A stretch of 60,401 nucleotides of DNA from Candidatus Thorarchaeota archaeon (GTDB lineage: Archaea > Asgardarchaeota > Thorarchaeia > Thorarchaeales > Thorarchaeaceae). Position 1 is the first letter of the stretch. Each line of letters starts with the position of its first letter. The position numbers were made by a program, and so were the translations under genes. This document shows positions 1 to 14,623 of this stretch, one piece after another. Where the stretch lies: assembly GCA_016933575.1 (NCBI GenBank), contig JAFGAR010000015.1:1-60401 (forward strand), read 5' to 3'. The notes under the pieces were generated by a model, which worked only from the letters and a program-made list of their open reading frames with translations, was not told where the DNA came from and made no database searches.

Positions 1-226
1 AGAAATTAATTAGAAGCCAATAAGGAACAATTTCATTGAATGTGGAATTGATCACAATTTCTACTTCATTGTCTTCACAAGTTGATTTAAAATCAGTTCC
101 TTTAGATGTTCCGTCTGCAGTCATAGGCGCAGGAGTGGTGGGCAGTCCCTCACTCACAGTGATCTGGTGGACCCTGAGGTCGGAGAGGGTATAGGTCGAA
201 TAGCGCTCTGCTCGGATGGGGAAGTA
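1..226 (-). pseudogene. Orphan C-terminal cassette 4 (type B arm), 5'-truncated, runs off the left window edge
   Basis: Manual translation of the minus strand gives YFPIRAERYSTYTLSDLRVHQITVSEGLPTTPAPMTADGT|SKGTDFKSTCEDNEVEIVINSTFNEIVPYWLLINF. The arm is nearly identical in protein to that inside 2135..3619. No start codon; open to the edge; not in the ORF track. Confidence 0.85.
109..226 (-). repeat. Type B homology arm, direct repeat of 2872..2989
   Basis: 118-bp manual alignment, about 17 mismatches (~86%), mostly synonymous; GC-rich. Confidence 0.92.
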
Positions 227-241
227 TGATAATTATTGATG

Positions 242-781
242 TTATTGATCTAATTCATGAAGTATTCTTTTGGTTATGATACCTGCTTTGTCGTTTCTGT
301 GACTCAGCTCACTTAGTTTATTCTTTGCTTCTAGGTTTCCAAGCTTGGACTCGTTATACAGATAGAGGACCAAGGGACGCATTTTTTTATCTGTGAGTTC
401 CTTGTCCCTATAGATTTTTGATTTTTCAAAATAACCATCGATGATTCCCCAGAGAAGAAATGATGGACCCAAAAACCACGTTAGACCTATTAGTTCAGCA
501 GCCTCGTCCATCAAGGTAATGAAAAGAATACCCCAGAAAAGCAAGGCCATGCATGAATACAAGAATACGTACAAAGTGATACTTCGAAAAAGGGTATTGA
601 TATGTTGAGAATACCACTTTTTCATGCGAAATGTAATGTTTGATTGTTTGTGCGTTTCGTTCTTAATTTCTGCAATATCATCAGATCGCAGAGTGTAAAT
701 CATCCACAGAAGTATTGACTCAATAGATACTATCGATACAATAGCTACGATCACATCAAATGTAGTTGCCATTTTCATCAC
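242..781 (-). CDS. Small membrane partner (putative immunity/cognate) protein of cassette 3; 3 TM plus C-terminal RND-x-x-G helical tail
   Basis: Starts 12 nt after the stop of 794..1822. Hydrophobic helices. Tail SHRNDKAGIITKRILHEL resembles IDRNDEVGKEAQKLWNEL of 1734..2129. Confidence 0.75.
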   Translation of the reverse strand: MMKMATTFDVIVAIVSIVSIESILLWMIYTLRSDDIAEIKNETHKQSNITFRMKKWYSQHINTLFRSITLYVFLYSCMALLFWGILFITLMDEAAELIGLTWFLGPSFLLWGIIDGYFEKSKIYRDKELTDKKMRPLVLYLYNESKLGNLEAKNKLSELSHRNDKAGIITKRILHELDQ

Positions 782-793
782 ATCATTATAGTT

Positions 794-1822
794 TCATAAC
801 AGATACGATAAGAAAAGTGCAATTGCAATTGTAAAACATACAATTGCCAATGCGAACCCAACGACATATATTGCATAATGGGTCCTTAAAACAGCACCTC
901 CAAGTCCATCAAGAGCTTCATTGCAGAATATCTTTTCAAATGCAGCCCCAGCACTACTCCAAAACGGGTCATGTGTTTTAAGTGTCATGTCTACACCCCT
1001 TTTCCCAGATATTGCGAGTAACAAAAGAGCAATGGCAATTGCTAAGAAAGTTATACCTGCTTTCCATGGCGCCATAGCACTGTTTAAAACAGCATAGATT
1101 AGAAAACCGATATACACCAGAGTTCCTGCAACTGCGGCCATCAGAGATAACCAAAACCAGCCCTCGGAAGAATGAGTAATGTCAATTGCTAATAGTCGTG
1201 GAATTGTCCATAATACAGACATCACAATGAACCCAATCAAAATTCCCATATCTGATAGCCATGCATTTTCTGCCTCATCCATTAGATCATCGGATTCTTG
1301 AGAAGTCATTTCCTCTGCACCATAGAAGGTGTAAGAGAAATCACTAATAGAAGCCGAACCTAACAAATCTATTGTTCCATGAATATTAAAAGAAACATCT
1401 GAATTAAATGTTTTACTAACAATAACATGGAGATTAGGCCACAAACCCGTCCAATAGGTGACTATTTCAAGAATTGCTAATGACAAATTATTGCTCAATG
1501 TTGTTTCAAATTCAAATCCAATGCTCTCACTTGTTCCATCATTATCATCCGGTTCCGGCACCAGGGTCTCCTGGGTAGCAGAGAACTGGATGACATGGAG
1601 GCGCATGTCGTTCATGGCGTAGCCAGAGTATCTCTCCATCCGGATGGCCAGGTACTTGATCTGGCGATAGGGGTTGGCCACTGCCCCCATGTCCCAAATA
1701 TCCTCACGCAGCATGTAGTTGTAGAAGTATGTATTAGATTGATGACTCCTCTGAGGCCAGTTCATTCCAGAGTTTCTGTGCTTCTTTGCCAACTTCATCA
1801 TTCCGATCAATGAAATATTCAA
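794..1822 (-). CDS. Orphan C-terminal cassette 3 (type A arm plus variable multi-TM C-terminus); homologous part begins at ~1695
   Basis: DMGAVANPYRQIKYLAIRMERYS...IQFSATQETLVPEPDDNDGT matches the big gene. It is followed by YWTGLWPNLH and 4-5 hydrophobic helices. The 1696..1822 part overlaps the neighbouring gene and is probably fortuitous. Confidence 0.85.
   Translation of the reverse strand: MNISLIGMMKLAKKHRNSGMNWPQRSHQSNTYFYNYMLREDIWDMGAVANPYRQIKYLAIRMERYSGYAMNDMRLHVIQFSATQETLVPEPDDNDGTSESIGFEFETTLSNNLSLAILEIVTYWTGLWPNLHVIVSKTFNSDVSFNIHGTIDLLGSASISDFSYTFYGAEEMTSQESDDLMDEAENAWLSDMGILIGFIVMSVLWTIPRLLAIDITHSSEGWFWLSLMAAVAGTLVYIGFLIYAVLNSAMAPWKAGITFLAIAIALLLLAISGKRGVDMTLKTHDPFWSSAGAAFEKIFCNEALDGLGGAVLRTHYAIYVVGFALAIVCFTIAIALFLSYLL
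1533..1695 (-). repeat. Type A homology arm, inverted copy of 12380..12542
   Basis: 163-bp manual alignment, about 19 mismatches (~88%). Confidence 0.93.
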
Positions 1823-2129
1823 GGATGTCTAAAATCTCGTCCTTTGATGGTTTTCCTCTCCGTATCATTCTATCGACTGTCCGGCGGAGGACTGTTTCAG
1901 GTCTATCTTCCTTCCTCATCGTGGACTCGAGAAGAATTGTGTACCCACGAATGCCCTGTTCACTATTTTTGTATGTGCCCTTGTTAAGATAGAATAGGAT
2001 GGCAAAGAGAGCAGTAAAGAATGCCTTCGATAGATCGTTTATTATTATGAACCATAGTGTTAGGCAGATAAGTCCTATTACTAATATTAGTCTGAGAGTG
2101 GGCCAGTATTTCATTTTTTGTTCAGTCAT
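1734..2129 (-). CDS. Small membrane partner (putative immunity) protein of cassette 2; 2 TM plus RND-x-x-G helical tail
   Basis: The ATG of MTEQK at 2129 lies 5 nt after the TGA of 2135..3619 and is preceded by GGTGAG. The ORF-track start at 2219 overlaps the upstream gene. Confidence 0.78.
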   Translation of the reverse strand: MTEQKMKYWPTLRLILVIGLICLTLWFIIINDLSKAFFTALFAILFYLNKGTYKNSEQGIRGYTILLESTMRKEDRPETVLRRTVDRMIRRGKPSKDEILDILEYFIDRNDEVGKEAQKLWNELASEESSI

Positions 2130-2134
2130 CAATC

Positions 2135-3619
2135 TCACCCTTGAACACTCATGATAAGATGATACACGAAGAGACCAGAGAATAGAGCTAATGCGCCTAG
2201 CAAGATTACACTTCCCCATTTAGTACGTGGACCTGACGATACTTCTTCTATCCATGGTAGCCAGATTCCAGCTCCACAAAGATGGATTTCGAAAACTACT
2301 CCTAAAAGAACTGCGGTCGTCGCTCCAAGTACATTCTTCAATGTTTTCCAACCAAATATGACTAACACAATCATAAGTGCTATTGCAAAGTATCTCCAAG
2401 CTGCAGTTCCATGTGAAATCATGCCACTTGCTAGATCATTTTCAATCACCCCAATTGGAGCAAGATAGGCTAGAATTGTTAGACCTACTGCGACTCCTAA
2501 TGCTACCGCGCACCATGGGCTACCGGGCATAATGGTTGATGCCATATCAAAAATATTTATAGCTACAACTGCAGATTGAAGCAGCATTGCAAAAATTGAA
2601 GCAAAAACAAAGTTAACAGCATTGGATAGGAAATCATCAAATGAAGGTCCTCCATTCACCTGAAGTGCAATAAGCTGAGTAATACCAATGAGATCTATTG
2701 TTAGATGGATCTCTTGTATCAAATCCAAAACAACAAAGCTTAGTAGCAAGTGGCATACTGGCCAGAAATTCTCCAAAGCCCACCAACTTAATAGGTTATT
2801 TCTAATGAAATTTATTCCAGTTTCTACTGCATTTTGTGTCAGTCTATTCTCATTGATGTTACCACACCAGCTTCCATCTGCAGTCATAGGGGCAGGAGTC
2901 GTGGGCAGCCCCTCGCTGACGGTGATCTGATGAACTCTGAGGTCGGAGAGGGTATAGGCTGAATAGCGCTCAGCCCGAATGGCGACGTAGGTGATGACCC
3001 GCTCGGGGTTTACCACGTCCCCAAGGCTCCCTGTTGCATACCCAGGAATCTCGTACTGCATCTCACCATCGTGGACCCAGAGCTTGCCTGTACGATGAAT
3101 GGACAATGTTGTGGTTGGCGTTGAATCATACTGCGCGCTTTCACCCTGCGGATAGTAAGCCACATGGAAATAGCCCTTGACATCCCAGGCCCACGCATCA
3201 CCCCAGTAGACCATGAGGACAATCTGCATGTTCTCATCGAACAGAGCCACATTAATCGCCCCCATCTGCGAACTGTGTTGTACAAGCTCTCCCTCCACCG
3301 AGAACTCACTCAGGTCTCCTAGTCTGAATGGATCATTTAAGACATGCACGAAATTCGGACCATGCCATCCGCTTGGACTATTAGGTATTGCAGATGGATA
3401 GAGGTAGCTAGAGCCAATGGATAGTTCGCCATAGGTAGTAACACCCCATGGAAATCCATTGTCAAGTGGAAAGTTGCTGTTACTGCTACAGTCGTCACTG
3501 AATGGTGGCGGAGGAATTCGTCTATTGGGGTCTGCAAGGATGTTGATGTCCTGAATTCGCATATCGACAATTGGTGTGGTAGAATACTGACAACCAAGTA
3601 GTACTAGATACTTGATCAC
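2135..3619 (-). CDS. Orphan cassette 2: end of repeat 2, a complete alternative repeat domain (type B end) and a variable multi-TM C-terminus
   Basis: The upstream in-frame LAECSNASRVIKY matches LGQCYNASRVIKY of the big gene. Contains GWHGP, ALFDEN, YWGDAW, GYFHVAYYPQG and PAPMTADGS, then WALENFWPVCH and hydrophobic helices. No signal peptide. Confidence 0.88.
   Translation of the reverse strand: MIKYLVLLGCQYSTTPIVDMRIQDINILADPNRRIPPPPFSDDCSSNSNFPLDNGFPWGVTTYGELSIGSSYLYPSAIPNSPSGWHGPNFVHVLNDPFRLGDLSEFSVEGELVQHSSQMGAINVALFDENMQIVLMVYWGDAWAWDVKGYFHVAYYPQGESAQYDSTPTTTLSIHRTGKLWVHDGEMQYEIPGYATGSLGDVVNPERVITYVAIRAERYSAYTLSDLRVHQITVSEGLPTTPAPMTADGSWCGNINENRLTQNAVETGINFIRNNLLSWWALENFWPVCHLLLSFVVLDLIQEIHLTIDLIGITQLIALQVNGGPSFDDFLSNAVNFVFASIFAMLLQSAVVAINIFDMASTIMPGSPWCAVALGVAVGLTILAYLAPIGVIENDLASGMISHGTAAWRYFAIALMIVLVIFGWKTLKNVLGATTAVLLGVVFEIHLCGAGIWLPWIEEVSSGPRTKWGSVILLGALALFSGLFVYHLIMSVQG
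2872..2989 (-). repeat. Type B homology arm, direct repeat of 109..226
   Basis: Encodes YVAIRAERYSAYTLSDLRVHQITVSEGLPTTPAPMTADG. Confidence 0.92.
3137..3177 (-). repeat. 41-bp core repeat (GYFHVAYYPQG), inverted copy of 12221..12261 and direct copy of 5116..5156
   Basis: 3 mismatches in 41 bp versus the big gene; the 25 bp AGGGCTATTTCCATGTGGCTTACTA are identical. Confidence 0.9.
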
Positions 3620-3638
3620 TCTAGATGCATTGGAACAT

Positions 3639-4001
3639 TCAGCAAGTGTGATTGATATCCTCTTTCTGTAAACCTTCCAATCTAAATGGAACCGTTAGTG
3701 CTGCGAAAATTACAAGTGCTATCCATGGCAAGCTTAGCATAACAACATGTTCAAACATCGCAGGTTCATACAGCCATTCATACACATATGCAGTCATGAA
3801 AGGCGCAGTAAGTACAATTACACAATACAAACCGATACTTAACCGAGTATGGATGTATTGTTCGAAAATGCGATGAAGTGTACGAAATACTTTTCTGTCA
3901 GAAGTTTGGAATTTTCCACTAGGATGCAAACCGATTGCTGCACAAGATATTCCAATCAGAAGTAGTAGGATACCTACACCAATTGCAAGAAGGAGGGTCA
4001 T
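3639..4001 (-). CDS. Small 3-TM partner (putative immunity) protein of cassette 1
   Basis: 120 aa with a GGAGGT Shine-Dalgarno upstream. Similar size and hydropathy to 13238..13606. Confidence 0.78.
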   Translation of the reverse strand: MTLLLAIGVGILLLLIGISCAAIGLHPSGKFQTSDRKVFRTLHRIFEQYIHTRLSIGLYCVIVLTAPFMTAYVYEWLYEPAMFEHVVMLSLPWIALVIFAALTVPFRLEGLQKEDINHTC

Positions 4002-4095
4002 GGAATTACCTCCCTTCTAATTTGTTGGAGTATTTGCGCAGGCATTTTTCCATTCTATTAGACATGGACACTTTGTTTCTATATAATATCATTAC

Positions 4096-5142
4096 CTACC
4101 ACCAACCTTGTATCATTCCATAGTAAGTTGCAATTGTGATAACAAGGAGAATCATCATTGTCACAAAAACAATTGCATTTGCACGGCCTGAAGATCCAGT
4201 GCTGCTATTAGATCTTGCCCAACCACCACTGAAATAACCAAGAGCACCTAAGAATCCAAGTGGAGAAAAGTGTAAGAATATTGCTGAAATAAGCCCAATA
4301 GCCAATACTGAGAGCGCCGCAAAAAGAAATGTCCATTGAGCATCACGCTGGTTCATTTCCATTTGTTTCACAGCAAAAACCAGCGACCACATGAACAATA
4401 AATAGATTGATGTCGTAATTATGCAGGCTTCAACGACGATTCCAGTGGCTATGTATGGGATAAGGCACAACACCTGTAAGACTAACAAAGAAACCCACAC
4501 TCCTACAAAGAGATATTGAACCACGTCATTCCAAAATGTGGAAGTCGAGGTCTTTTCTACCACACAAGAATAGAACATTCCTGCTTCTTCTTCTGTAATC
4601 TCTTCTGCACCTCCAAATTCTGACTCCACATTCTGAATTGAAACCAGTCCCAATAAATCAACAATTGACTGAATGAGAATCGATACATCTAGAGAGAGGC
4701 TTATTGATACATCTATATGTAGGACTGGCCAAGGACCTGTCCAATAGATACTCAATGATTGATATGCTTGCTCCATCATTGTTGTTGTATCATTATCATG
4801 ATTACTAGCTATTCCATCAGCTGATGAAACGGAAGTCCCATCCGCCACCATCGGCTCCGGCACCAGGGTCTCCTGGTCAGCGTAGAGGTTGATGGTGTGG
4901 AGGCGCATCTCATTCATATCATCAGCGGAGTAGCGCTCCATCCGGATGGCCAGGTACTTGATCTGGCGATAGGGGTTGGCCACTGCCCCCATATCCCCGC
5001 TCTGGATGGTCCCGCCCTGGTCCTTGATCTTGTAGGTCACGTGACCACCTGTCACTCGGAACTCTCCGATCCGGTAGAAGGAGGTGTAGATGTAGCCCGT
5101 TGTATCGGAGACCGTGCTTCCACCCTGTGGGTAGTAAGCCAC
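4096..5142 (-). CDS. Orphan C-terminal cassette 1 (long type A arm plus variable multi-TM C-terminus)
   Basis: The first ~103 aa are almost identical to the second half of repeat 3 of the big gene, ending PEPMVADGT. YWTGPWPVLH and hydrophobic helices follow. An in-frame stop lies shortly upstream, so there is no N-terminus. Confidence 0.9.
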   Translation of the reverse strand: MAYYPQGGSTVSDTTGYIYTSFYRIGEFRVTGGHVTYKIKDQGGTIQSGDMGAVANPYRQIKYLAIRMERYSADDMNEMRLHTINLYADQETLVPEPMVADGTSVSSADGIASNHDNDTTTMMEQAYQSLSIYWTGPWPVLHIDVSISLSLDVSILIQSIVDLLGLVSIQNVESEFGGAEEITEEEAGMFYSCVVEKTSTSTFWNDVVQYLFVGVWVSLLVLQVLCLIPYIATGIVVEACIITTSIYLLFMWSLVFAVKQMEMNQRDAQWTFLFAALSVLAIGLISAIFLHFSPLGFLGALGYFSGGWARSNSSTGSSGRANAIVFVTMMILLVITIATYYGMIQGWW

Positions 5143-5156
5143 ATGGAAATTGCCCT
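4834..5156 (-). repeat. Long type A homology arm, inverted copy of 12221..12543
   Basis: 323-bp ungapped manual alignment, about 37 mismatches (~88%); ~55-62% GC in sampled 60-nt lines. Confidence 0.95.
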
Positions 5157-5193
5157 TATTCTCTCCAGATGAACTGTTACATTAGAGCTTCAG

Positions 5194-5313
5194 ATTCTGA
5201 TTCATCAATATAACGGGATCGACAACGCACGAGTAATAGACTCGATCGTCAGCATTGAAGAAGATATAATGACATTCATCAAAATCGTGGAGGATTTTCT
5301 CGGTGAATCGTGA
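5194..5313 (+). pseudogene. C-terminal remnant of a HEPN (DUF86-like) toxin gene
   Basis: Translates ILIHQYNGIDNARVIDSIVSIEEDIMTFIKIVEDFLGES*, resembling the RNxLxHxYxxID end of DUF86 but lacking the RN and everything upstream. Its stop overlaps the GTG start of the MNT gene. Confidence 0.7.
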
Positions 5314-5695
5314 TAAGATACGTAGAGATCCGCATTTTCTCAGTAAGAGGGAAGTAGTCCTCTTTGGATCTCAGGTCTCTGGAACTTTCGATTCGCGTTC
5401 TGATGTAGATATAGCTATTATAACACGCTCCCAAGACAAAGATGAGATGATGCATATTCGCCTAGATGCTCTAGGTAAGGCTCCAGATGGCTACGACATC
5501 CAGATCTTTGAAGAGCTACCTTTAGTCATCAAAGGTGCCATCATCGAGGAATTTGAAGTTCTCTTTGGAGATTCCCTTGAGATTGGTATGTACTTCTTCT
5601 ATATTCGAAAGTTTTGGGAAGACTACAATCATCGAATTGAAGTTCCAACAATTGAAGAGATTCAGAGGGGATTTGCAGAAGGTCAAAATCCATGA
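5303..5695 (+). CDS. Minimal nucleotidyltransferase (MNT, pol-beta superfamily), HEPN-MNT antitoxin type
   Basis: LFGS...SDVDIAI (GS plus DxD), third Asp in YDIQ; 130 aa. Confidence 0.9.
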   Translation: MNRDKIRRDPHFLSKREVVLFGSQVSGTFDSRSDVDIAIITRSQDKDEMMHIRLDALGKAPDGYDIQIFEELPLVIKGAIIEEFEVLFGDSLEIGMYFFYIRKFWEDYNHRIEVPTIEEIQRGFAEGQNP

Positions 5696-5790
5696 TCTAC
5701 AAGTTCTTCTTGTTATTCATTATGCCCTTGGGTATCTCCATGTGTCATAAACTTGAAGTGTTTTGGATTTGATAATACGAATACGACTTA

Positions 5791-7053
5791 TCACTTCTTC
5801 AATTGTTCAAGTAATTCCTTTGCTCTCTCGACTTTGACATTCTTTTCTTTGACTAGACGTTCAGCAATGGTATCAACCATATCTCCACGAGCTCCAGCAG
5901 TTGCTGCAACATTTCTTGCGTGTAGTGCCATATGCCCCTTTTGGATCCCCTCTGATGCTAATGCACGGAGTGCTGCAAGGTTCTGGGCAAGTCCAACACT
6001 AGCAATGATGTGACCCAATTCAAGCGCAGTTTTGACTCTAAGGATCTTCACACAAGCTCGTGCCACTGGGTGCACTTTTGTTGCTCCACCAACGAGACCA
6101 ACAGCCATTGGAAGTTCGATGGAACCAACAAGATTTCCATTCGGGTCTATCTCATACTTTGTAAGAGATCCATACCCTTCCCGTGCGGCATAGCTATGAG
6201 CTCCTGCCTCAATTGCTCGAAAGTCATTCCCCGTGGCAATTACGACTGCGTCAATGCCATTCATTATTCCCTTATTATGGGTTGCACACCTGTAGGGATC
6301 TGCCTCAGCAAATGCCCATGCTGTGATAATATCATTTACTACCTCAGCTCCACCAAGAAGTTCCTTGTCAAAGGTAGCCCTCACGCGAACCAATCGATAT
6401 TCTGCAAGGTTTGATAGAATTCGGAGAATCACTCTTCCGCCTGTTATCTTTTCGATGCGTGGCGCCAAAGCTTCAGCCATTGTGTTTACTGCATTTGCTC
6501 CCATTGCATCTCTTGTATCTACAATGAGTTCGCAGACAAGCATCACACCAACCTTTGAGTCAAAAATGCGAACTCTGAGGTCTCTTGCGCCGCCTCCGAA
6601 CCGGACAAGGATTGGGTCTTGCTCATTAGCAAGCTGAAGAAGTTCTTCCTTTACTTCAATTATCCTGTTCTTTGCAGCATAGGGTGCAGGAACTTCTACA
6701 GTCTGAATCTGTGCTATCATTAAAGGACCTGTATCTGTTGCAACGAACCCGCCAAGGTTTCTAGCAATTCTCGCTGCATTACTTGCTGCGGCAACAACAG
6801 ATGGTTCTTCGATTGCCATTGGTATCAGGTAGTCTTTTTCATTTATCTTGAAATTAGTCGCTATCCCTAAGGGAAGGGTCATTGCTCCAACAACATTCTC
6901 AATCATATGGTCCAAAACTTCTAGGTCAACCTTACCTGGATTCACCAATGGTTCAAGATCTTCATCTCCGAGTCCAGTTACTTCCTTCAGTTTCTTCACA
7001 CGTTCTTCGCGCGTCAATTTGTAAAATCCTGAAACCTTTGAATCTTCGACCAT
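5791..7053 (-). CDS. hmgA: Hydroxymethylglutaryl-CoA reductase, class II
   Basis: Motifs ENVVG, EEPSVVAA, DAMGAN, THNKGIMNG, GIQKGHMALH. Confidence 0.96.
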   Translation of the reverse strand: MVEDSKVSGFYKLTREERVKKLKEVTGLGDEDLEPLVNPGKVDLEVLDHMIENVVGAMTLPLGIATNFKINEKDYLIPMAIEEPSVVAAASNAARIARNLGGFVATDTGPLMIAQIQTVEVPAPYAAKNRIIEVKEELLQLANEQDPILVRFGGGARDLRVRIFDSKVGVMLVCELIVDTRDAMGANAVNTMAEALAPRIEKITGGRVILRILSNLAEYRLVRVRATFDKELLGGAEVVNDIITAWAFAEADPYRCATHNKGIMNGIDAVVIATGNDFRAIEAGAHSYAAREGYGSLTKYEIDPNGNLVGSIELPMAVGLVGGATKVHPVARACVKILRVKTALELGHIIASVGLAQNLAALRALASEGIQKGHMALHARNVAATAGARGDMVDTIAERLVKEKNVKVERAKELLEQLKK

Positions 7054-7148
7054 GAAAAGACCTCGACAACTTTGATAGTCTGTTTCGACATTACCATAAA
7101 AGAATGTCCATCGTACAATTTATCTTGATTCATCAGACTCATAGATAC

Positions 7149-7583
7149 ATGTCGTATAACTCGGGTAGGGGCATAGGTGTCTGTCTTTCAATTACATTCG
7201 GTATAATGACCATCGTGTTTGGTCTGATGTTTGTCTTCTTGTTTTCTACAATTGATACGTTTTTCCAATCAATTTCGTGGTATGTATTTTGGGCTGGAAT
7301 CGTGTTGGTAATTGTTGGTGTCGTATTGATTCCTAGTGCAAGAAATGAAGCACGTACACGAAGGAAAATTCTAGAGATAGCTGCCGTGAGAAAAGAGGTG
7401 ACAATCTCTGAAATCAGTGCAGAAACTGGTATAGATAGTGAATATATTCGAAATCTAATCACTACCCTTTTGATAAATGGAATGCTCTTTGGGTATCTTG
7501 AGGGTGACCTATTCGTTCGTGACACTTCTGCACGACCCAGATATTATGGTGGACAAGCGGGATTGTTTGGTGCCCTTGGGTAA
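7149..7583 (+). CDS. 2-TM membrane protein with C-terminal PCI-like winged helix
   Basis: Two hydrophobic helices, then VTISEISAETGIDSEYIRNLITTLLINGMLFGYL. Likely start MSYNS at 7149 (ORF track 7104). Confidence 0.7.
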   Translation: MSYNSGRGIGVCLSITFGIMTIVFGLMFVFLFSTIDTFFQSISWYVFWAGIVLVIVGVVLIPSARNEARTRRKILEIAAVRKEVTISEISAETGIDSEYIRNLITTLLINGMLFGYLEGDLFVRDTSARPRYYGGQAGLFGALG

Positions 7584-7664
7584 TTTTCTGCTTGTGCGAA
7601 GATATAGTTTGGAACCATAGGGTTTATTTCACAAGCATTTGACGATGCAGACTGGTCATGTATC

Positions 7665-9182
7665 ATGAGTTCAGAACGAGACTTTAACGATGTCATCATG
7701 GGTTTAGCAAAGAAGAGAGGGTTCTTCTGGGGTCCTAGCCCGGAGATATATGGTGGTAGTTCTGGATTCTATGATCTCGGTCCACTTGGCAAACTACTAA
7801 AGAACCGACTAGAGAACGCTATCCGGTCCTCGTTTGTAAAAGCCAACTTCTGGGAAGTTGAATGTCCCACGGTCTCTCCTGAGGCTGTCTGGAAGGCTTC
7901 TGGTCACCTTGACGGATTCATAGACCCTGTGACACAATGTACAAAATGCGAACAAGTATTCAGAGCAGACAATCTCATTATTGAACAATCTCCTGATGCC
8001 CAGATAGCTGGTCAAACTGTAGACCAACTCACCGAAACCATCAAGAAACTTGGTATTGTATGCCCTGCATGTAAGAGCCTCCTGGGTCCAGTTGAAACAT
8101 ACAATCTTATGATGAAGACAAGGCTAGGTCTCGTTCAGGATGCATATCTCCGCCCCGAAACCGCAACATCAACATACTTGCTTTTCAAGAGGTTCTTGAC
8201 CTTTTTCAGAGACAAGCTACCAATGATGGTCTTTCAGATTGGTAAGGCTTATCGTAATGAGATTTCTCCACGACAGGGAATGCTTCGATTGAGAGAGTTC
8301 ACTCAGACTGAGGGTCAAATATTCATTCTTGAGGAAGATGAGCAAAACTGGCCGCAGTATGATTCTATCAAGACTGTGGAACTTCCTCTCCTGTCAAACA
8401 TTGCTCAACAAAAGGGCTCTACACAGCCAGTTCGAATGAAGATTTCTGACGCTATCAAGAAGGGTCATTTTCAGAAACCTGCGTATGCATGGTGTGTGTA
8501 TCTTGCGTACTCTATATTCAGAGGTATGGGCTTTTCTGAAGAGAAACTACGACTTCGCCAACACTTGAAGACTGAGATGGCGCATTATGCGCAAGACGCA
8601 TGGGACTTGGAAATTCAAACACAGAGCTTTGGATGGGTGGAGTGCTGCGGTATCCACGACCGTGGTAACTATGATCTCACTCGTCATCAGGAATTCTCGA
8701 ACGAGAAGATGAGTGTGAGTGTGAATAAGCAACCTGTCATCCCAAATGTTCTTGAAATTGCATTTGGCATCGAGAGACCTCTATTCTGCTTGATTGACAA
8801 TTCTTTCCAACCTGAGAGTGAGGCTCGTGATACGGATTGGCTTCAGTTCCCACCCGAAGTAGCTCCGATTCAAGTTGCAGTATTTCCTCTGATGGGTAAG
8901 GATGAACTACTTCAACCTGCACGTGAGATTTACGATTCTATTATAGACGTAGGTTTCATTACGCAGTTCGATGTCGGTGGTTCGATAGGCAAGAGATATA
9001 GACGTCAGGACGAGGTTGGTACACCTTTTTGTGTCACTATCGACTATACAACTCTTGAGGATGGCACAGTTACCATTAGAGACCGTGACTCAATGAATCA
9101 AATCCGTGTACACAAAGATGACATTATCCAAGTGTTGAGAAGACTTATTCGTAGGTCAGTGCTCTTCGATTCTCTGAAGTAA
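7665..9182 (+). CDS. glyS: Glycine--tRNA ligase (archaeal/eukaryotic type)
   Basis: Motifs IYGG..GFYDLGPLG, YLRPETA, YRNEISPRQG..RLREFTQ, GSIGKRYRRQDEVGTP. Confidence 0.97.
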   Translation: MSSERDFNDVIMGLAKKRGFFWGPSPEIYGGSSGFYDLGPLGKLLKNRLENAIRSSFVKANFWEVECPTVSPEAVWKASGHLDGFIDPVTQCTKCEQVFRADNLIIEQSPDAQIAGQTVDQLTETIKKLGIVCPACKSLLGPVETYNLMMKTRLGLVQDAYLRPETATSTYLLFKRFLTFFRDKLPMMVFQIGKAYRNEISPRQGMLRLREFTQTEGQIFILEEDEQNWPQYDSIKTVELPLLSNIAQQKGSTQPVRMKISDAIKKGHFQKPAYAWCVYLAYSIFRGMGFSEEKLRLRQHLKTEMAHYAQDAWDLEIQTQSFGWVECCGIHDRGNYDLTRHQEFSNEKMSVSVNKQPVIPNVLEIAFGIERPLFCLIDNSFQPESEARDTDWLQFPPEVAPIQVAVFPLMGKDELLQPAREIYDSIIDVGFITQFDVGGSIGKRYRRQDEVGTPFCVTIDYTTLEDGTVTIRDRDSMNQIRVHKDDIIQVLRRLIRRSVLFDSLK

Positions 9183-9351
9183 ATCTCTGGCATGAAATAC
9201 TAGAAATTCTATAATTTTTGAATTAGAACATCATTATTGACAATGAGACTATACTATTAATAGAACTGGTTTCCGGTGGATTTATATTGCTCTACAAGTA
9301 ATAAAATTCCAGTGCCTTTACTGAAAATCGTGGTTTCGTGAGGACAGCAAA

Positions 9352-12300
9352 TTGGGACGCAAGGGCGTTCTTTCAAAGAGAAATGTGGTCTTACTATGTA
9401 CCACTTTTGTGACACTTGTACTTTCAATGCAGCTGGTAGCAACAACTGCATGGACAGCAGATGTTGCCAATGCTGGACCGGGAGTGACTATCGTTCAACT
9501 CTCGGATGACAGTGATTCTGACTGGGCGACGCAGGATCTGATTAGTCGTCTATCTGAGTTCATTCACGATGATATATTTTTCAGAGATAGAATCAGTGTG
9601 ATAAAGACTGACAACCCACATGTCGTTGTATCAATTGCTGACAATATTGTGATTTACGTTTCACATGGAGGTCCTCTTGGCATTGTCACAGGGAAACATT
9701 TGACAACCTGGTCCAGAATGGCGCAGATTGTGGAGAACTCAAAAGCATCAATTCATCTCTTCACCGCCTGTTCCAGTAAGAACATCATTAGACACGGGAG
9801 TGCTGATTCAACTAAGCAGCTCTACACTGTGCCAGGCGCACGACCCGCAGAAGTGACCAATGTCGAGATCACAACAACCGTCCTACTTGCTCTGGGATTT
9901 GATACAGAATATGCAGACCAGTATCGCACATCAGAACTGACCAAGGCAAAAGAACTCGTCGAGACTGGAAAGAGCGTTCACATCATGGTCTTCGAAGAGA
10001 TCATTCTGACCGAGATTGAGAATATTGATAATTCATACAATGAGACTTGGACTGATGATTTCAGGGTCTATCGCGAAGCTGTGGTTGTGACATATACCAG
10101 TACTGGAGATTTCTACTTACTACCGTATGATCTAAAGAATGATCTAATTCATTACTATAGGAATTTTGTTGATACTGATGGTGTTGACGCACTCAGAGAA
10201 CTCGGACAACTTTACATTACCTACACGAAGAACTATTACATCAACTCAACGTACACTGGTGAGGGATCATCCCAGCTCTTACCTGACTCACTTGAATTCT
10301 CTATTACAGAAAACAATGGTTTTAGTGATTATTATGAAACAGCACTATTCTTCACAAGCGGTGGGTGGGTAAATGAGACTCCAGTTTTCACTGGAGGGAC
10401 CTATTCGGGATGGTTGAAGTACGCGGGAGACCACATCGAGTTCCAACAGGTTGTGGTTAATGTCACTGCCAGTGGTTCAATACTTGCTGCAAATGAAACA
10501 ACACTGGTAGATTCAATCTCCCTGCAACAGATTGATGCAGGTGGTACATATCTACAGCGGCAAAAGATTGACGGTGTCTGGCAAGAGCCTTCTGTAGGTC
10601 GAAATCCAAGACGGACTGGCGGACTCTGGACAGATCCCGGTATCAAAGCTGACTATGAGTATGAGTCAGGATGGACACCTCCATTGGGGTACACCGCGAG
10701 CACAGGCGTAATTCATTCCAGTGGTGAGTACATCTATATCGACTCCATTCCCTCTGGGACTTCATGGCATGGACCCTCCTTTGTGAACACATTGCCATCC
10801 TATTTCAGAATGAACGATTTCGGAAGTTTCTCAGCGAATATCTCCATGGTTCATGGAACTGGTGTCAAGCTTGCCAGAGCATGCGTCACCCTCTATGATG
10901 AGAATAAGAAGGTCGCGATGGTTCTCATGATATCTGATGCCTCTGGAGACCGTCAGGAAGAGGCGTTTTATGCCTATTACTATCATGAAGATGGGACTGG
11001 TGCTGGTCTGGGTTCGCAGGTGTTCACTGGCGATACATCAGGCATTGTCCAGATTCGTTATGACCCGCATCAAGGGATTTATGCAGATGTTCCCGGAAAA
11101 GATGAAGTGCGCCTCTTCAAATGGACAGAGATCGACCCTGAACGGGTCATCAAATATGTGGCAGTTCACTGCTACCGCTACAGTTCGTATACACTGAATG
11201 ATGCGCGGTTTAACAGTATTCAGGTGAATTATGCAGGGTCTGAGTACACAGTTCTTCACGACAACTGCAATGATGTGAACAACTTCCACCTTGACGACGA
11301 TTTCGGGTATGGTACATATGCATACGGTGACCTCTACGTTCCTTCTGGGCAGAGCTACATGTCCTTTACAAACATCCCCACAACACCATCAGGTTGGCAT
11401 GGTCCTGATTATGTTCACGTTCTCGATAGGCCATTCAGGCTCTGTCAACTCAGCGAGTTCTCGGTCATTGGCGAGCTTGTTCAGAGCTACTCAACCATGG
11501 GAAACACCTACGTGGCACTCTTTGATGAGAATGAACAGATTGCGATGCTGGTGTACTGGGGCGATGCATGGGCCGGGAGTAAGAAGGGCTGGTTCAACGT
11601 CTATTTCTACCCCCAGAATGGCGGTTCTTACAGTCAGGAGTCCGGTTATATCTATACATCATTCTTGAAGACCGCGACTCTCTGGTGGGGGTCCTATCCC
11701 GGAATTGAGGGGTCAATCTATTCAAAGATCGACGGTACCTCAAAGCAACTTGGTCAATGCTATAATGCATCTCGTGTGATAAAATACGTAGTTCTCTTAG
11801 GCTATCGGTACTCACACTATGGTCTTGTGGATATGCGGATTCATGATATCAATGTTGTAGCGGACTTGAAGTGGAACCAACGTGCATTGGTGCTAACTGA
11901 TGATTGTGAAAATATGGATAACTTTGAGAACGACCCCACTTTCGGATGGGGCACGGTCTCAGCAGGAGAACTCTATGTTCCCTCCGGTCAGAGCTATATG
12001 ACCTCTACAGGTATTCCAACAACACCCTCTGGCTGGCACGGGCCCACATATGTCCACGAACTTGAGGCTCCGTTCAGTCTGTACAACCTCTACATGTTTA
12101 ATATTCATGCTGAGCTATTCCAGTACTACGACCAGCGGGGTCTCACAGAGATTGCTCTGTTTGATGTGGACAAACAACCTGTTCTGAAAATCTATTGGGG
12201 CGATTCTTCTGAAGAGATGCAGGGCTATTTCCATGTGGCTTACTACCCACAGGGTGGAAGCACGGTCTCCGATACTACCGGCTACATCTACACCTCCTTC

Positions 12301-13236
12301 TACCGGATCGGAGAGTTCCAAGTTGTTGGTGGCCATATGATGTACAAGATCAAGGACCAGAGCGGCACCCTCCAGAGCGGGGACATGGGGGCAGTGGCCA
12401 ACCCCTATCGCCAGGTCAAGTACCTTGCCATCCGGATGGAGCGCTACTCCGCTGATGATATGAATGAGATGCGCCTTCATGCCATCCAGTTCTCTGCTAC
12501 CCAGGAGACCCTGGTGCCGGTGCCGGAGGATAATGATGGGACTCTTGAGGGTAAACTAGATAATTGTGAATCTCAGGGATATGAATTAAGTGAATATTAT
12601 GCGAGCCAAGCTAATTCAGAATTACTCATTTATTGGACTGGACCATGGCCTGAACTGCACTTTCAAAGAAGTAGTCCAAGTCGTGAATCAAATACAGAAT
12701 TTCACCTGAAAGCAAATCTCATTCATGAAGTTACTCTATGCAGTGCAAATGAAGGCAATTACAACGAACCTCAAGGAGGTGAATTCTATAATGAGGTTGT
12801 GATTGAATTTTTGGTAATTGAATGCACTGTGTGTGCACTCATGTTTCTTGCTCTTCTTGCTGTTGATTGCTACCAAACATCACTTGGAACTAATTGGGTT
12901 GCTTTACTTGCTTCTGCGATATTAGCTACTTCAGCAATATTTAGTGGATTATTACTTTTGAAATATTTCTACGATTCTGGATTCGATATCGAATGGGTAG
13001 GTTCCATGTTCTTTTTGTTAGCAGTTGAAATGTTGACTTGGGCATGGGGTGATATTATCCTTTGGATCTTCATTGGGATGACTCTTGGTCTACTTTTTCA
13101 GTCAGTCAAGAAGATTGCTTTCAAGAACGCCTGTTCCGCACTTGATTTTCTCTGGATTAAGAAAATATACTTAACAACCGCTGCAGTGTTTTTCTTCATA
13201 ATGGCAGAATTATGCTATACACAGGGGTATTTATGA
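9352..13236 (+). CDS. Large secreted polymorphic protein: signal peptide, caspase/CHAT-like peptidase motif, three ~200-aa repeats and an exchangeable multi-TM C-terminus
   Basis: N-terminal basic then hydrophobic leader. IYVSHG (H105) and LFTACSS (C140). Three repeats with WHGP, (L/Y/F)D, IKY, RYS and D/E-x-R motifs. Sharp GC drop after PVPEDNDGT. Alternative C-termini lie at 1..5156. Confidence 0.9.
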   Translation: MGRKGVLSKRNVVLLCTTFVTLVLSMQLVATTAWTADVANAGPGVTIVQLSDDSDSDWATQDLISRLSEFIHDDIFFRDRISVIKTDNPHVVVSIADNIVIYVSHGGPLGIVTGKHLTTWSRMAQIVENSKASIHLFTACSSKNIIRHGSADSTKQLYTVPGARPAEVTNVEITTTVLLALGFDTEYADQYRTSELTKAKELVETGKSVHIMVFEEIILTEIENIDNSYNETWTDDFRVYREAVVVTYTSTGDFYLLPYDLKNDLIHYYRNFVDTDGVDALRELGQLYITYTKNYYINSTYTGEGSSQLLPDSLEFSITENNGFSDYYETALFFTSGGWVNETPVFTGGTYSGWLKYAGDHIEFQQVVVNVTASGSILAANETTLVDSISLQQIDAGGTYLQRQKIDGVWQEPSVGRNPRRTGGLWTDPGIKADYEYESGWTPPLGYTASTGVIHSSGEYIYIDSIPSGTSWHGPSFVNTLPSYFRMNDFGSFSANISMVHGTGVKLARACVTLYDENKKVAMVLMISDASGDRQEEAFYAYYYHEDGTGAGLGSQVFTGDTSGIVQIRYDPHQGIYADVPGKDEVRLFKWTEIDPERVIKYVAVHCYRYSSYTLNDARFNSIQVNYAGSEYTVLHDNCNDVNNFHLDDDFGYGTYAYGDLYVPSGQSYMSFTNIPTTPSGWHGPDYVHVLDRPFRLCQLSEFSVIGELVQSYSTMGNTYVALFDENEQIAMLVYWGDAWAGSKKGWFNVYFYPQNGGSYSQESGYIYTSFLKTATLWWGSYPGIEGSIYSKIDGTSKQLGQCYNASRVIKYVVLLGYRYSHYGLVDMRIHDINVVADLKWNQRALVLTDDCENMDNFENDPTFGWGTVSAGELYVPSGQSYMTSTGIPTTPSGWHGPTYVHELEAPFSLYNLYMFNIHAELFQYYDQRGLTEIALFDVDKQPVLKIYWGDSSEEMQGYFHVAYYPQGGSTVSDTTGYIYTSFYRIGEFQVVGGHMMYKIKDQSGTLQSGDMGAVANPYRQVKYLAIRMERYSADDMNEMRLHAIQFSATQETLVPVPEDNDGTLEGKLDNCESQGYELSEYYASQANSELLIYWTGPWPELHFQRSSPSRESNTEFHLKANLIHEVTLCSANEGNYNEPQGGEFYNEVVIEFLVIECTVCALMFLALLAVDCYQTSLGTNWVALLASAILATSAIFSGLLLLKYFYDSGFDIEWVGSMFFLLAVEMLTWAWGDIILWIFIGMTLGLLFQSVKKIAFKNACSALDFLWIKKIYLTTAAVFFFIMAELCYTQGYL
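10700..12500 (+). repeat. Three tandem ~200-aa intragenic domain repeats (~10700-11235, 11257-11865, 11896-12500)
   Basis: For example YVPSGQSYM...IPTTPSGWHGP.YVH occurs in repeats 2 and 3, and IPSGTSWHGPSFV in repeat 1. Boundaries are approximate. Confidence 0.85.
12221..12543 (+). repeat. Recipient homology arm in the full-length gene
   Basis: Matches 4834..5156, 1533..1695 and 3137..3177 (all inverted) and 13623..13688 (direct). Confidence 0.95.
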
Positions 13237-13237
13237 G

Positions 13238-13606
13238 ATGCAAATTGACTTTATACTAAGAACATCATTGTTTCTTCTAGCATTACTACCAGTAGGACTG
13301 ATTATTCCAACATATTTGGAAGTTGTCACTTGGTTTCTGGGTCGTAAGAGTATGCATGATAAAAATATCTTGAGTATATTCCGTACAAAATCAATTGTGA
13401 TCTGTATTGGATTAATTGCAATATCTATAGTGACCTATTATTGGTGGGGTGTTTTCTGTTACCAGTTCATTATGAGTCCCATACTTGGACTTGGCGCTCC
13501 AATGTTTTCAATCATGCTTATTATACCGTCATGGTTTTGTTTCGTTCCAGTCTTTCGAGAATACTACTCTTCAATAGAGAAAAGAACTAAGAATTCAACT
13601 ATGTAG
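13238..13606 (+). CDS. Small 3-TM partner (putative immunity) protein of the full-length gene
   Basis: ATG 1 nt after the TGA of the big gene (TGAGATG); 122 aa, AT-rich, hydrophobic. Confidence 0.8.
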   Translation: MQIDFILRTSLFLLALLPVGLIIPTYLEVVTWFLGRKSMHDKNILSIFRTKSIVICIGLIAISIVTYYWWGVFCYQFIMSPILGLGAPMFSIMLIIPSWFCFVPVFREYYSSIEKRTKNSTM

Positions 13607-13622
13607 ACATGGAGAATATCAA

Positions 13623-13688
13623 GCCATCCGGATGGAGCGATACTCTGGCTACACTATGAACGACATGCGCCTCCACACCACTAACTTC
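13623..13688 (+). repeat. Residual type A arm fragment with no C-terminal domain attached
   Basis: GCCATCCGGATGGAGCGATACTCTGGCTACACTATGAACGACATGCGCCTCCACACC encodes AIRMERYSGYTMNDMRLHT; the frame closes shortly afterwards. Confidence 0.9.
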
Positions 13689-13881
13689 AATGTTGGGAAT
13701 TCGATTTTTAGGCAGCTAAATCAAGAGTTTTGTCTGAAACATATCTCTTCAATAATTTAAACCTCGTCGAATTTTGGAATACCCTACATCAGCATAACAT
13801 ATTTGTGCAGCACTAGCACGTATGGAACATCCAGTTCGCGCTCAGTCCATATGAGATACGAGCATTTCGAGGTCGAGCTAC

Positions 13882-14616
13882 ATGGAAGATGAATGCACAC
13901 AATGGGAACGGCTTGCAAACGAGTTCCTGGAAAGAGAGAATTATAGCCAAGCAGCCAATCAATTCAAGCAGGCTGCAAGCTGTTACCTCGACCGTGTATT
14001 AGAAATGACAAAGAAGGCTGCAGAGTATTTCCACATGCATGCGGAGGAATGTGTTGACAAAGATGATCACAAAGCCGCGGCGATGGCCTATCTTGAAGCT
14101 GCAACCCAGTACAGACAAGTGAGTGATTTTTCAACTGCGCTATCACTCTATGAGAATGCAGCAAAGGAAGCTCTCCTTGAGAGAATGACTGAGACAGCAG
14201 CACAAGCATATCTATGGGCAGCCTACTCCTGTCATAAGACTGGAAATAGAGAGTATTTCTTGACTTGCGCTTTAAATATGGGAAACCTCTATGATAAGGC
14301 TGCAGAGAAGGCAATTGATAACGGAAATGCAGAACGAGCTGTGATTGACCTCTCACTAGCAGCAATGGGTTTTGCTACAATTGAGAAGATGGACAAGGCA
14401 AAAGAGAGAATTGACAAGGCTAAGAAGATTATCGACAAGACTAGATGGGAATGGCTTAGAACCCTTCTAGAATTCAGCGAGAATCTAGCTGATAATAATC
14501 TGGATGATGCAGATGAACTTTTGAGGATCTTCAAGGAAGAGGAAGCCATCCAAGAAGTAATGGGTGCTTGTCTGAGTATACGAGAAGAGATTGAGAGAAA
14601 GAAACGGAAGAGATAG
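13882..14616 (+). CDS. Alpha-SNAP/TPR-like helical repeat protein
   Basis: Repeated A-A-x-x-[YF]-x-x-A-A helices (QAANQFKQAASCY, AAAMAYLEAATQY, ALSLYENAA). Confidence 0.7.
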   Translation: MEDECTQWERLANEFLERENYSQAANQFKQAASCYLDRVLEMTKKAAEYFHMHAEECVDKDDHKAAAMAYLEAATQYRQVSDFSTALSLYENAAKEALLERMTETAAQAYLWAAYSCHKTGNREYFLTCALNMGNLYDKAAEKAIDNGNAERAVIDLSLAAMGFATIEKMDKAKERIDKAKKIIDKTRWEWLRTLLEFSENLADNNLDDADELLRIFKEEEAIQEVMGACLSIREEIERKKRKR

Positions 14617-14623
14617 TATTCTC

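Follow-up and report, generated by a model that had tools for sequence, protein, structure and literature searches.

A 60,401-nt stretch of DNA from a Candidatus Thorarchaeota archaeon (assembly GCA_016933575.1, contig JAFGAR010000015.1, positions 1 to 60,401; here, the window) encodes near its start a large secreted protein, MAIN, together with an array of start-less spare copies of the MAIN C-terminal end. On balance, we favor reading the locus as a polymorphic system of carrier, exchangeable tail, and cognate partner in which, by analogy with polymorphic toxins, the tail may be a membrane-acting effector and the partner its protector. The original prediction, made from the letters of the window, had likened the layout to the orphan C-terminus (CT)-immunity arrays of bacterial contact-dependent inhibition (CDI), Rhs, and MafB systems, and that interpretation is supported by a shared N-terminus, differing tails, and start-less cassettes. 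It had also placed the DNA in a probable Asgard archaeon, and the genomes that carry the protein are indeed titled Candidatus Thorarchaeota. The window is the start of contig C56 in genome G000, a 3.47-Mb metagenome-assembled genome (MAG; 85.5% complete, 6.9% contamination). Among the sequences compared below, G001 is a sister species, L072 is an ENA scaffold, and L080 is a locus of Thorarchaeota OWC3.

Carrier, cassettes, and partners

MAIN (9352..13236, plus strand; 1,294 aa) is a single open frame and the system's sole full-length gene in the window; all other copies are 3'-end fragments. As had been claimed, a small membrane gene is coupled to it. This partner of the MAIN tail (13238..13606, plus strand; 122 aa, 3 to 4 hydrophobic segments) starts 1 nt past the MAIN stop codon and appears to be translationally coupled to MAIN. 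Four partial copies of the MAIN 3' end all lie on the minus strand, that is, inverted relative to MAIN. Two of these cassettes were recognized by their repeat to the MAIN arm, namely, c1 (4096..5196; arm 4834-5194, tail 4096-4833) and c3 (794..1696; arm 1526-1695 plus tail). Cassette c2 (2135..3655) holds more than one whole repeat and a tail of the W.L.NFWP subtype. Finally, c4' (1..232) has a short arm (109-226, 86% identical to the c2 arm; repeat D2) and the start of a tail that continues on contig C38. A fifth fragment, on the plus strand at 13623-13695, is what remains of another arm, and no tail follows it (repeats D4, I3, and I4), and an arm fragment follows the partner at the same position in L072. 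Thus, the predicted start-less C-termini, at least four in number, are present, but their inversion relative to MAIN had been missed.

The three complete cassettes are each followed by a different small membrane gene with 2 to 4 hydrophobic segments, as had been proposed. All three partner genes lie on the minus strand and were called from open frame and hydrophobicity. The partner of c1 (3639..4001) encodes 120 aa with 3 hydrophobic segments, the partner of c2 (1734..2219) encodes 161 aa with a membrane N-terminal half and a helical, soluble C-terminal half, and the partner of c3 (242..781) encodes 179 aa.

The cassettes bear sharp homology arms that share an end point. The arm of MAIN (12183..12543, plus strand), which is the end of its third repeat, forms inverted repeat I1 with the c1 arm (4834-5194); the two are 86% complementary over 361 nt and ~94% complementary within 12225-12476, with exact common runs of 50, 49, 40, and 30 nt. 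When followed in 60-nt windows, identity to the c1 arm is ~90% across 12190-12540 and then falls to 26 to 61%, mostly ~35 to 45%. The c3 arm, 87% complementary over 170 nt, has the same sharp profile from 12365 to 12540. All arms end at the DGT motif (amino acids 1062 to 1064, nt 12535-12543), where the junction follows the pattern ...ETLVP.P...DG[TS]. A TAA stop codon stands directly upstream of the c1 arm, conserved arm codons lie before the first possible start codon, and the c2 arm starts within the last codons of the c1 partner gene. Because of the upstream stop and the arm codons that precede any start, we conclude that the cassettes are truncated 3' copies and not genes with N-termini of their own, the other possibility that the original prediction had raised. 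The tail frames examined are all open, at 229 to 259 codons per tail, two of them cut at a contig break, and with the same layout recurring in independent assemblies, the arrangement is not one of chance. Long open frames also run antisense to the arms (12115-12480, minus strand; 4828-5169 and 1484-1810, plus strand). They are conserved between copies only because the arms are, and they are probably not genes.

The array extends beyond the window. Contigs C56 and C38 begin with the same 87 nt read in opposite senses, as exact reverse complements, and are therefore genomic neighbors. The c4' reading frame is continuous across this overlap, and the break falls inside a cassette tail. When joined, the array covers ~15 kb and at least seven cassettes in a single orientation, and at its far end on C38 it meets a major facilitator superfamily transporter gene followed by MGMT-like, USP, and ASKHA genes. 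Partner-only genes are present in the arrays, and one such copy (C38:9693..10061) is 75% identical to the c2 partner. Contig C57 ends in a second locus, a degenerate one (258800-264400; L007/L067). There, the carrier is reduced to a signal-peptide remnant (80% identity over 30 aa) directly before a cassette, about seven tail-less small membrane genes follow the cassette, and a HEPN-MNT pair lies alongside. The C57 locus is syntenic with the main locus of G001, with which it shares an adenylosuccinate-lyase-like and OTC-like flank.

Tails and partners as modules

The carrier is conserved up to the junction, and the tail is not. Across seven named loci, the N-terminus and repeats are 42 to 67% identical to MAIN, and the tail of MAIN is matched in none (0/7). 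Local alignment scores for nine full-length homologues were 274 to 1,626 for the N-terminus, 76 to 628 for the last repeat, and 34 to 49 for the tail. Moreover, the 1,319-aa orthologue in G001 is 62 to 63% identical to MAIN up to about amino acid 1115 of 1,294, at which point the match stops. The check proposed with the original prediction, that orthologues share the N-terminus and differ after DG[TS], thus came out as expected in the seven loci and the nine homologues.

Tail and partner vary together. Fifteen tail-partner modules from G000, G001, and L072 form 105 pairs. Tails are related in three of them (63, 48, and 76% identical), and in these same three and no others the partners are related as well (49, 35, and 71%, correspondingly). 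For all remaining pairs, tails are 19 to 30% identical and partners are 15 to 32% identical, which is the floor of global alignment. By this comparison, tail and partner are inherited and moved as one module. The tail of MAIN is 63% identical to orphan cassette P0086 on L072 and 19 to 30% identical to every other tail, and the MAIN partner is about 48 to 50% identical (47.6% by BLAST) to the gene after P0086; the tail and partner in the expressed position in the window are thus an orphan module in L072. The c1 tail shares 48% identity with the first orphan of G001, and the c1 partner shares 35 to 36% with the partner of the G001 orphan of that tail type.

One module is an orphan in G000 and the main tail and partner in G001. 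This orphan, C38_c2, differs from the G001 main tail with a dN of 0.14 and a dS of 0.80 (dN/dS, ~0.18), and we conclude from the low dN relative to dS against an expressed counterpart that it was kept under purifying selection. The ratio is quoted for this one pair only, and dS is saturated in most cross-species pairs. The proportion of synonymous differences (pS) between G000 and G001 is 0.49 for the tail and 0.60 for the partner of this module, versus 0.77 to 0.80, which is saturated, for the glycyl-tRNA synthetase (GlyRS), the HMG-CoA reductase (HMGR), and the carrier. Because module pS is well below that of the housekeeping genes and the carrier, the module may have moved between lineages after G000 and G001 split, a lead that comes from one pair. 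Rather than a set of unlike toxins, the tails are strongly diverged variants of a single membrane domain.

Gene order and a probable inversion

Gene-order comparison gives good support to the view that recombination between arms inverted a segment and thereby replaced the expressed tail, leaving the present structure. In both G001 (C5) and G010 (C87), the genes run ASKHA-USP-MGMT, GlyRS on the minus strand, HMGR on the plus strand, a tetratricopeptide repeat (TPR) protein, and a 416-aa protein, with no cassette nearby, and a short contig (G006:C163) has the same cassette-free GlyRS-MGMT side. The flanks in G000 keep that order and orientation, with ASKHA-USP-MGMT to the left on C38 and the TPR and 416-aa genes to the right (13882..15874). 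The GlyRS-HMGR pair, however, is flipped relative to both conserved flanks, with the array to its left and MAIN to its right. The region's only long inverted repeat is the MAIN/c1 arm pair, and that pair bounds the flipped block. The putatively inverted segment, defined by gene-order comparison, is 5197..12182 and contains a nucleotidyltransferase gene, HMGR, a small membrane/winged-helix-turn-helix gene, GlyRS, and the 5' 2.8 kb of MAIN. When this segment was inverted in silico, the ancestral arrangement of GlyRS (minus) and HMGR (plus) was restored and the layout became that of G001:C7 and L080, with a main gene, its partner, and co-oriented orphans. With the segment turned back, it is the c1 tail that closes the carrier, and the tail now attached to it stands as an orphan next to the TPR gene. 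Because the block is bounded by the arms, and because undoing it restores both the ancestral order and the canonical layout, we read the event as an inversion between the arms.

General homologous recombination is the likely agent, as no recombinase family was found among the gene products of 1-16 kb, and arms that consist of ~360 nt of diverged coding sequence suggest the same. An inversion through the 73-nt remnant at 13623-13695 instead of the MAIN arm is less likely, with only 78% identity over 73 nt, and an inversion from the nucleotidyltransferase gene to GlyRS alone is less likely, with no repeat at those ends.

The inversion has its difficulties. It is drawn from a comparison of species and not from reads, and other breakpoints are possible. 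Moreover, the cassettes next to GlyRS are oppositely oriented in G041 and L072. Since cassettes in these two point the other way, and since those of L072 also stand head to head, more than one rearrangement took place at the site, with a history beyond one event; a single history that also covers the opposite orientation in G041 and L072 could not be reconstructed. At L072:2273-3745, one of the two head-to-head cassettes breaks off 8 aa short of DGT and the other begins with W..WP; the place where they meet resembles the scar of a further inversion whose breakpoints fell at the junction.

Domains of the carrier

The carrier begins with a predicted signal peptide or membrane anchor (amino acids 1 to 36; 9352..9459), basic and then hydrophobic, that may be cleaved as a Sec-type leader. 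There follows an alpha/beta domain (9472..9978) with an SHGG...ACxS motif pair and a caspase/legumain/CHAT-like (clan CD) fold match to its AlphaFold2 (AF2) model. The model (residues ~41 to 209; 19 homologues; mean pLDDT, 70), in fragment residues 12 to 180, best matches SAVED-CHAT (8tl0; Z, 11.3; 158 residues aligned; root mean square deviation, 4.0), followed by legumains, metacaspase 4, caspase-8, and GPI transamidase at Z values of 8 to 9.6, and Foldseek also returns CHAT, a C11 protease, and caspases 3 and 6. Against the same model, however, sugar-binding and LacI folds of a generic kind reach Z values of 8 to 9.4, and for that reason the fold alone is suggestive, not conclusive. Sequence motifs add weight to the fold match. 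His76 and Cys111 of the fragment (amino acids 105 and 140 of MAIN) are invariant in the eight closest homologues, and in the model SHGG comes after the third strand (E70-74) and ACxS after the fourth (E105-109), which is the clan CD arrangement. The N-terminal domain is suggestively clan CD-like, with fold and motifs taken together. No Pfam model matched it, and a PDB sequence search with the N-terminus was empty.

The middle of the carrier is rich in beta structure. A first domain (10060..10659) has AF2 strands at moderate confidence and no covering fold match. It is followed by three ~200-aa repeats found by self-alignment (10687..12534: R1, 10687-11271; R2, 11272-11886; R3, 11887-12534). 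R3 was modeled at a pLDDT of 94 to 98 as a concanavalin A-like (ConA-like) sandwich, and Foldseek matched it to carbohydrate-binding module (CBM) CBM2 of phage J-1 Dit (5ly8; E, 7e-10; TM, 0.70) and then to calreticulin lectin domains and GH16. The repeats of MAIN are, by these models, ConA-like lectin/CBM sandwiches. We note that distant paralogues of the lectin-like repeats (25 to 31% identity) occur in other large G000 proteins, at C138:84709-85767 and on C102, C215, and C78 (L009, L010, L012, and L014).

The variable tail (12535..13236; ~230 aa) was delimited by AF2 and hydrophobicity. After DGT, the tail runs from an acidic linker of low confidence through a helix and a four-stranded sheet to another acidic linker and, last, four long hydrophobic helices. 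The helix and sheet form a W..WP/DLLG module at 12580-12750, with the conserved W..WP..H and DLLG motifs on the sheet, and the hydrophobic helices span 12775-13224. Proteins P0042 and P0112 from other samples have the caspase-like N-terminal domain joined almost directly to the DLLG motif and hydrophobic tail, with the lectin repeats deleted. A predicted complex of the MAIN tail with its partner scored 0.01.

Searches returned no described family. No model of Pfam, NCBIfam, or PADLOC matches the carrier, the tails, or the partners, and the profile searches detected no Rhs/YD, FHA, LXG, or MafB feature, in agreement with the original prediction. A protein atlas search with the tail gave no usable match, and a word-based homologue search with the partner returned only the query itself. 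As far as its sequence goes, no part of the system appears to match a described family.

Neighboring genes and distribution

Toxin-antitoxin genes seem to mark the borders of the arrays. The window carries a lone nucleotidyltransferase gene of the Polbeta/MNT type (5303-5695, plus strand; Pfam E, 6e-10) at the array edge, and the equivalent edge has MazE-PIN pairs in G041:C89 and L072 and HEPN-MNT on C57. Between HMGR and GlyRS lies a gene (7104-7583, plus strand) for a small protein with two hydrophobic segments (CD20-like Pfam; E, 4e-7) and a winged-helix-like C-terminal part; it is missing from that position in G001 and G010. The gene at 13882-14616 (plus strand) encodes a 244-aa, all-helical, TPR-like protein that is 84 to 85% identical in G001 and G010. 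Its borderline Pfam match to SNAP, the soluble NSF attachment protein (E, 2e-5; 24.6 bits versus a cutoff of 25), could be worth attention in an Asgard archaeon. Scans of the window for Rfam families and tRNAs gave no matches.

The N-terminal domain was found in the Candidatus Thorarchaeota genomes OWC3, C14-20, A361, and MP5_2600 (G010, of the same genus as the window's genome), in one genome labeled Hermodarchaeota, and in one labeled Promethearchaeota. Among 400 genomes of the phylum, the domain is present in 17 of the 85 other genomes of the same family, across 12 genera, and outside that family only two weak matches occur in 314 genomes. A search of 1.84 billion representative proteins found 204 relatives of MAIN (E <= 0.001), many of them the size of a cassette. 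The system of carrier, tail, and partner may well be restricted to one Thorarchaeota family, and we incline somewhat to that view. No earlier description was found in the literature searched on Asgard archaea and Thorarchaeota and on polymorphic toxins, with that on archaeal polymorphic toxins only partly covered.

Discussion

How the locus might work is suggested by its genetic logic, which by analogy is that of polymorphic toxin/immunity, a class defined by Zhang et al. 2012 (PMC3482391): an exported carrier, a sharp junction, a variable C-terminus, a cognate gene, armed spares, and surplus partner-only genes. Tails would be exchanged by homologous recombination within the arm that ends at DG[TS], a step with good support. 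The last exchange in G000 would have been an inversion between the MAIN arm and the arm of an oppositely oriented orphan, which flipped GlyRS-HMGR, moved the earlier tail (c1) to the first place in the array, and gave the carrier its present tail. The carrier would bind a glycan on a neighboring cell through its lectin repeats. The tail, possibly freed by the caspase-like domain, would insert into and damage the neighbor's membrane, and a matching small membrane partner in the target cell would act as immunity. Caspase-like releasing or processing peptidases are a documented component of Sec-exported polymorphic toxins (PMC3482391). The surplus partner-only genes of the arrays would amount to a stockpile of immunities. 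Because the variable part and the partner are both predicted membrane proteins, an effector that inserts into the membrane and is neutralized there is the simplest mechanism.

Several points weigh against a toxin. Toxicity, delivery, cleavage, and protection all stand at the level of prediction. All of the tails are one fold, unlike the usual mix of nucleases, deaminases, and the like in polymorphic toxins, and the four-helix hydrophobic tail, as modeled, resembles a membrane anchor as much as a weapon. The clan CD match, at a Z value of 11.3, appears only modestly above generic alpha/beta folds at 8 to 9. Moreover, the peptidase-like domain is N-terminal and not adjacent to the tail as in bacterial releasing peptidases, and no secretion or injection apparatus is linked to the locus. 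Finally, G000 is a MAG, 85% complete with 7% contamination.

Because the tails are versions of one membrane domain, toxin/immunity and self-recognition are equally structural readings of the locus. The main alternative to a toxin is a nonlethal kin or self/nonself recognition system, which we hold to be improbable. In it, a transferred or apposed tail would have to find the membrane partner that matches it, and the cells would then adhere, fuse, or form a boundary. Models for such a system are IdsD-IdsE of Proteus and TgrB1-TgrC1 of Dictyostelium. All tails are alleles of one fold that keep the W..WP and DLLG motifs, many deeply diverged types exist at 19 to 30% identity to each other, and one type is common to two species with fewer synonymous differences than housekeeping genes, all of which would suit recognition. 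So would a variable part and a partner that are both membrane embedded, as in IdsD and IdsE. Stockpiles of spare tails and partner-only genes, however, are easier to understand as weapons and immunities than as identity tags, and one expressed tail beside many silent ones makes identity switchable, which would weaken a stable kin signal.

Variation of the cell's own surface is quite unlikely. Under that explanation, the tail is the membrane anchor of a lectin adhesin, the partner is an assembly or stabilizing subunit, and exchange serves phase or antigenic variation, as in pilE/pilS, or escape from a virus that exploits the complex. Silent, 5'-truncated copies with homology arms are what pilS-type systems have, and the four-helix domain predicted for the tail is integral to the membrane, as an anchor should be. 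An anchor that varies nevertheless fits poorly: conservation is found in the exposed peptidase-like domain and lectin repeats and variability in the buried part, the reverse of what antigenic or receptor variation would lead one to expect. Moreover, pilS-type cassettes come without a cognate second gene, whereas here each tail has one that covaries with it.

Pseudogene debris from decaying duplicates, or an assembly artifact of collapsed or misjoined strain variants, is largely excluded and very improbable: cassettes do lack starts, and the MAG is fragmented with arrays at three contig ends, but the tail frames of 229 to 259 codons are all open, the orphan has a dN/dS of ~0.18 against its expressed counterpart, each partner gene is intact and has a start of its own, the orphan types are conserved from one species to another, and the same layout recurs inside long contigs of independent assemblies. 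A misjoin at the inverted arms is also unlikely because their exact runs (<=50 nt) are shorter than the 87-nt overlap of the contig ends. The collapse of strain variants that the original prediction had allowed for is not what was found, as tails are 19 to 30% identical and the same architecture lies inside a 138-kb contig of another assembly.

Asgard archaea are the closest prokaryotic relatives of eukaryotes, and cell-cell contact is central to models of eukaryogenesis. To our knowledge, almost nothing has been reported on how these archaea fight, recognize, or attach to other cells. The locus is a concrete and testable candidate for a surface system peculiar to one lineage and organized genetically like polymorphic toxins or allorecognition loci. 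In it, a caspase-like domain and lectin repeats go together with a stock of membrane tails, each matched by a partner. Its variants would be switched by inversion between the gene and opposed silent cassettes across housekeeping genes. We know of no description of inversion switching for the orphan cassettes of bacterial CDI and Rhs systems, which lie co-oriented downstream of the main gene. We speculate, tentatively, that Thorarchaeota have their own system of contact-dependent antagonism or allorecognition, built from parts unrelated to the bacterial ones, in which a lectin carrier delivers a membrane tail released by a caspase-like domain, the partner decides the outcome, and cells switch type through recombination events with silent modules, among them reversible inversions in which essential genes are carried along. 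The protein families are all unannotated, and naming them would clear several hundred "hypothetical" entries.

Comparison with known systems

The system resembles CdiA-CT/CdiI, Rhs, and MafB in its conserved N-terminal carrier part, a C-terminus that differs between orthologues, a sharp junction motif, a small gene directly downstream, and start-less, armed spare C-termini each with a small gene. A caspase-like domain as a possible processing peptidase would be a further likeness to polymorphic toxin systems. It differs from CDI, Rhs, and MafB in its archaeal host and in having no two-partner secretion (TPS)/FHA, YD, PAAR, LXG, or MafB-N part. With respect to CDI, the carrier has no Pfam match to TPS or FHA, and its neighbors are GlyRS, HMGR, and TPR proteins and not a CdiB transporter. 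With respect to Rhs/YD, there is no Pfam match, the repeats fold as ConA-like sandwiches, and the junction is not PxxxxDPxGL. In contrast to bacterial polymorphic toxins, the tails are one diverged membrane fold and not many enzyme folds, the partner is always a small multipass membrane protein, and the peptidase-like domain is N-terminal. In contrast to bacterial orphan arrays, the spare tails here point against the gene, and switching apparently proceeds by inversion, not by deletion or duplication.

Membrane-depolarizing or pore-forming toxins include the CdiA-CT of Escherichia coli EC93 with CdiI, Staphylococcus aureus TspA with its TsaI arrays, and colicins with immunity proteins of 3 to 4 transmembrane segments. 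Like these, the Thorarchaeota system has a hydrophobic helical C-terminal domain, a small integral membrane protein as putative protector, and extra immunity-like genes in tandem. No relation to them in sequence or fold was detected, however. As far as we know, the type V and type VII secretion and Tol/Ton routes of delivery do not exist in this organism.

The closest archaeal analogue is VARTIG of the Thermococcales, a large protein built up of Ig domains, the C-terminal one hypervariable, for which recombination was inferred between genomes only (PMC8416519) and for which the authors reported no counterpart outside the Thermococcales (PMC8416519). Both are large archaeal surface proteins with a hypervariable C-terminal region and variant-specific downstream membrane proteins, and both have a layout like that of polymorphic toxins, no recognizable toxin, and the same three candidate functions. 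Unlike VARTIG, however, the Thorarchaeota repeats match lectin, CBM, calreticulin, and GH16 folds and not Ig, the variable part is a membrane domain, and silent cassettes are present in the genome.

IdsD and IdsE of Proteus mirabilis offer a likeness in that variable stretches of one transferred protein and one resident membrane protein fix the cognate binding, and in their adjacent, covarying genes. Ids differs in needing type VI secretion and in having neither a silent cassette array nor a lectin carrier, and no homology to it was detected.

Finally, the genetics recall pilE/pilS, shufflons, and invertible hsdS. In contrast to shufflons and hsdS, there is no site-specific recombinase in 1-16 kb, and the inverted repeats are 361-nt coding arms. 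Moreover, unlike all three, the inverted segment is 7 kb long and holds essential genes, and there is a partner gene for each cassette. As in those systems, one expressed gene is accompanied by promoter-less, 5'-truncated copies that would recombine with it through shared sequence, and as in invertible-segment switches, inversion between opposed copies would change the expressed 3' end with no loss of information.

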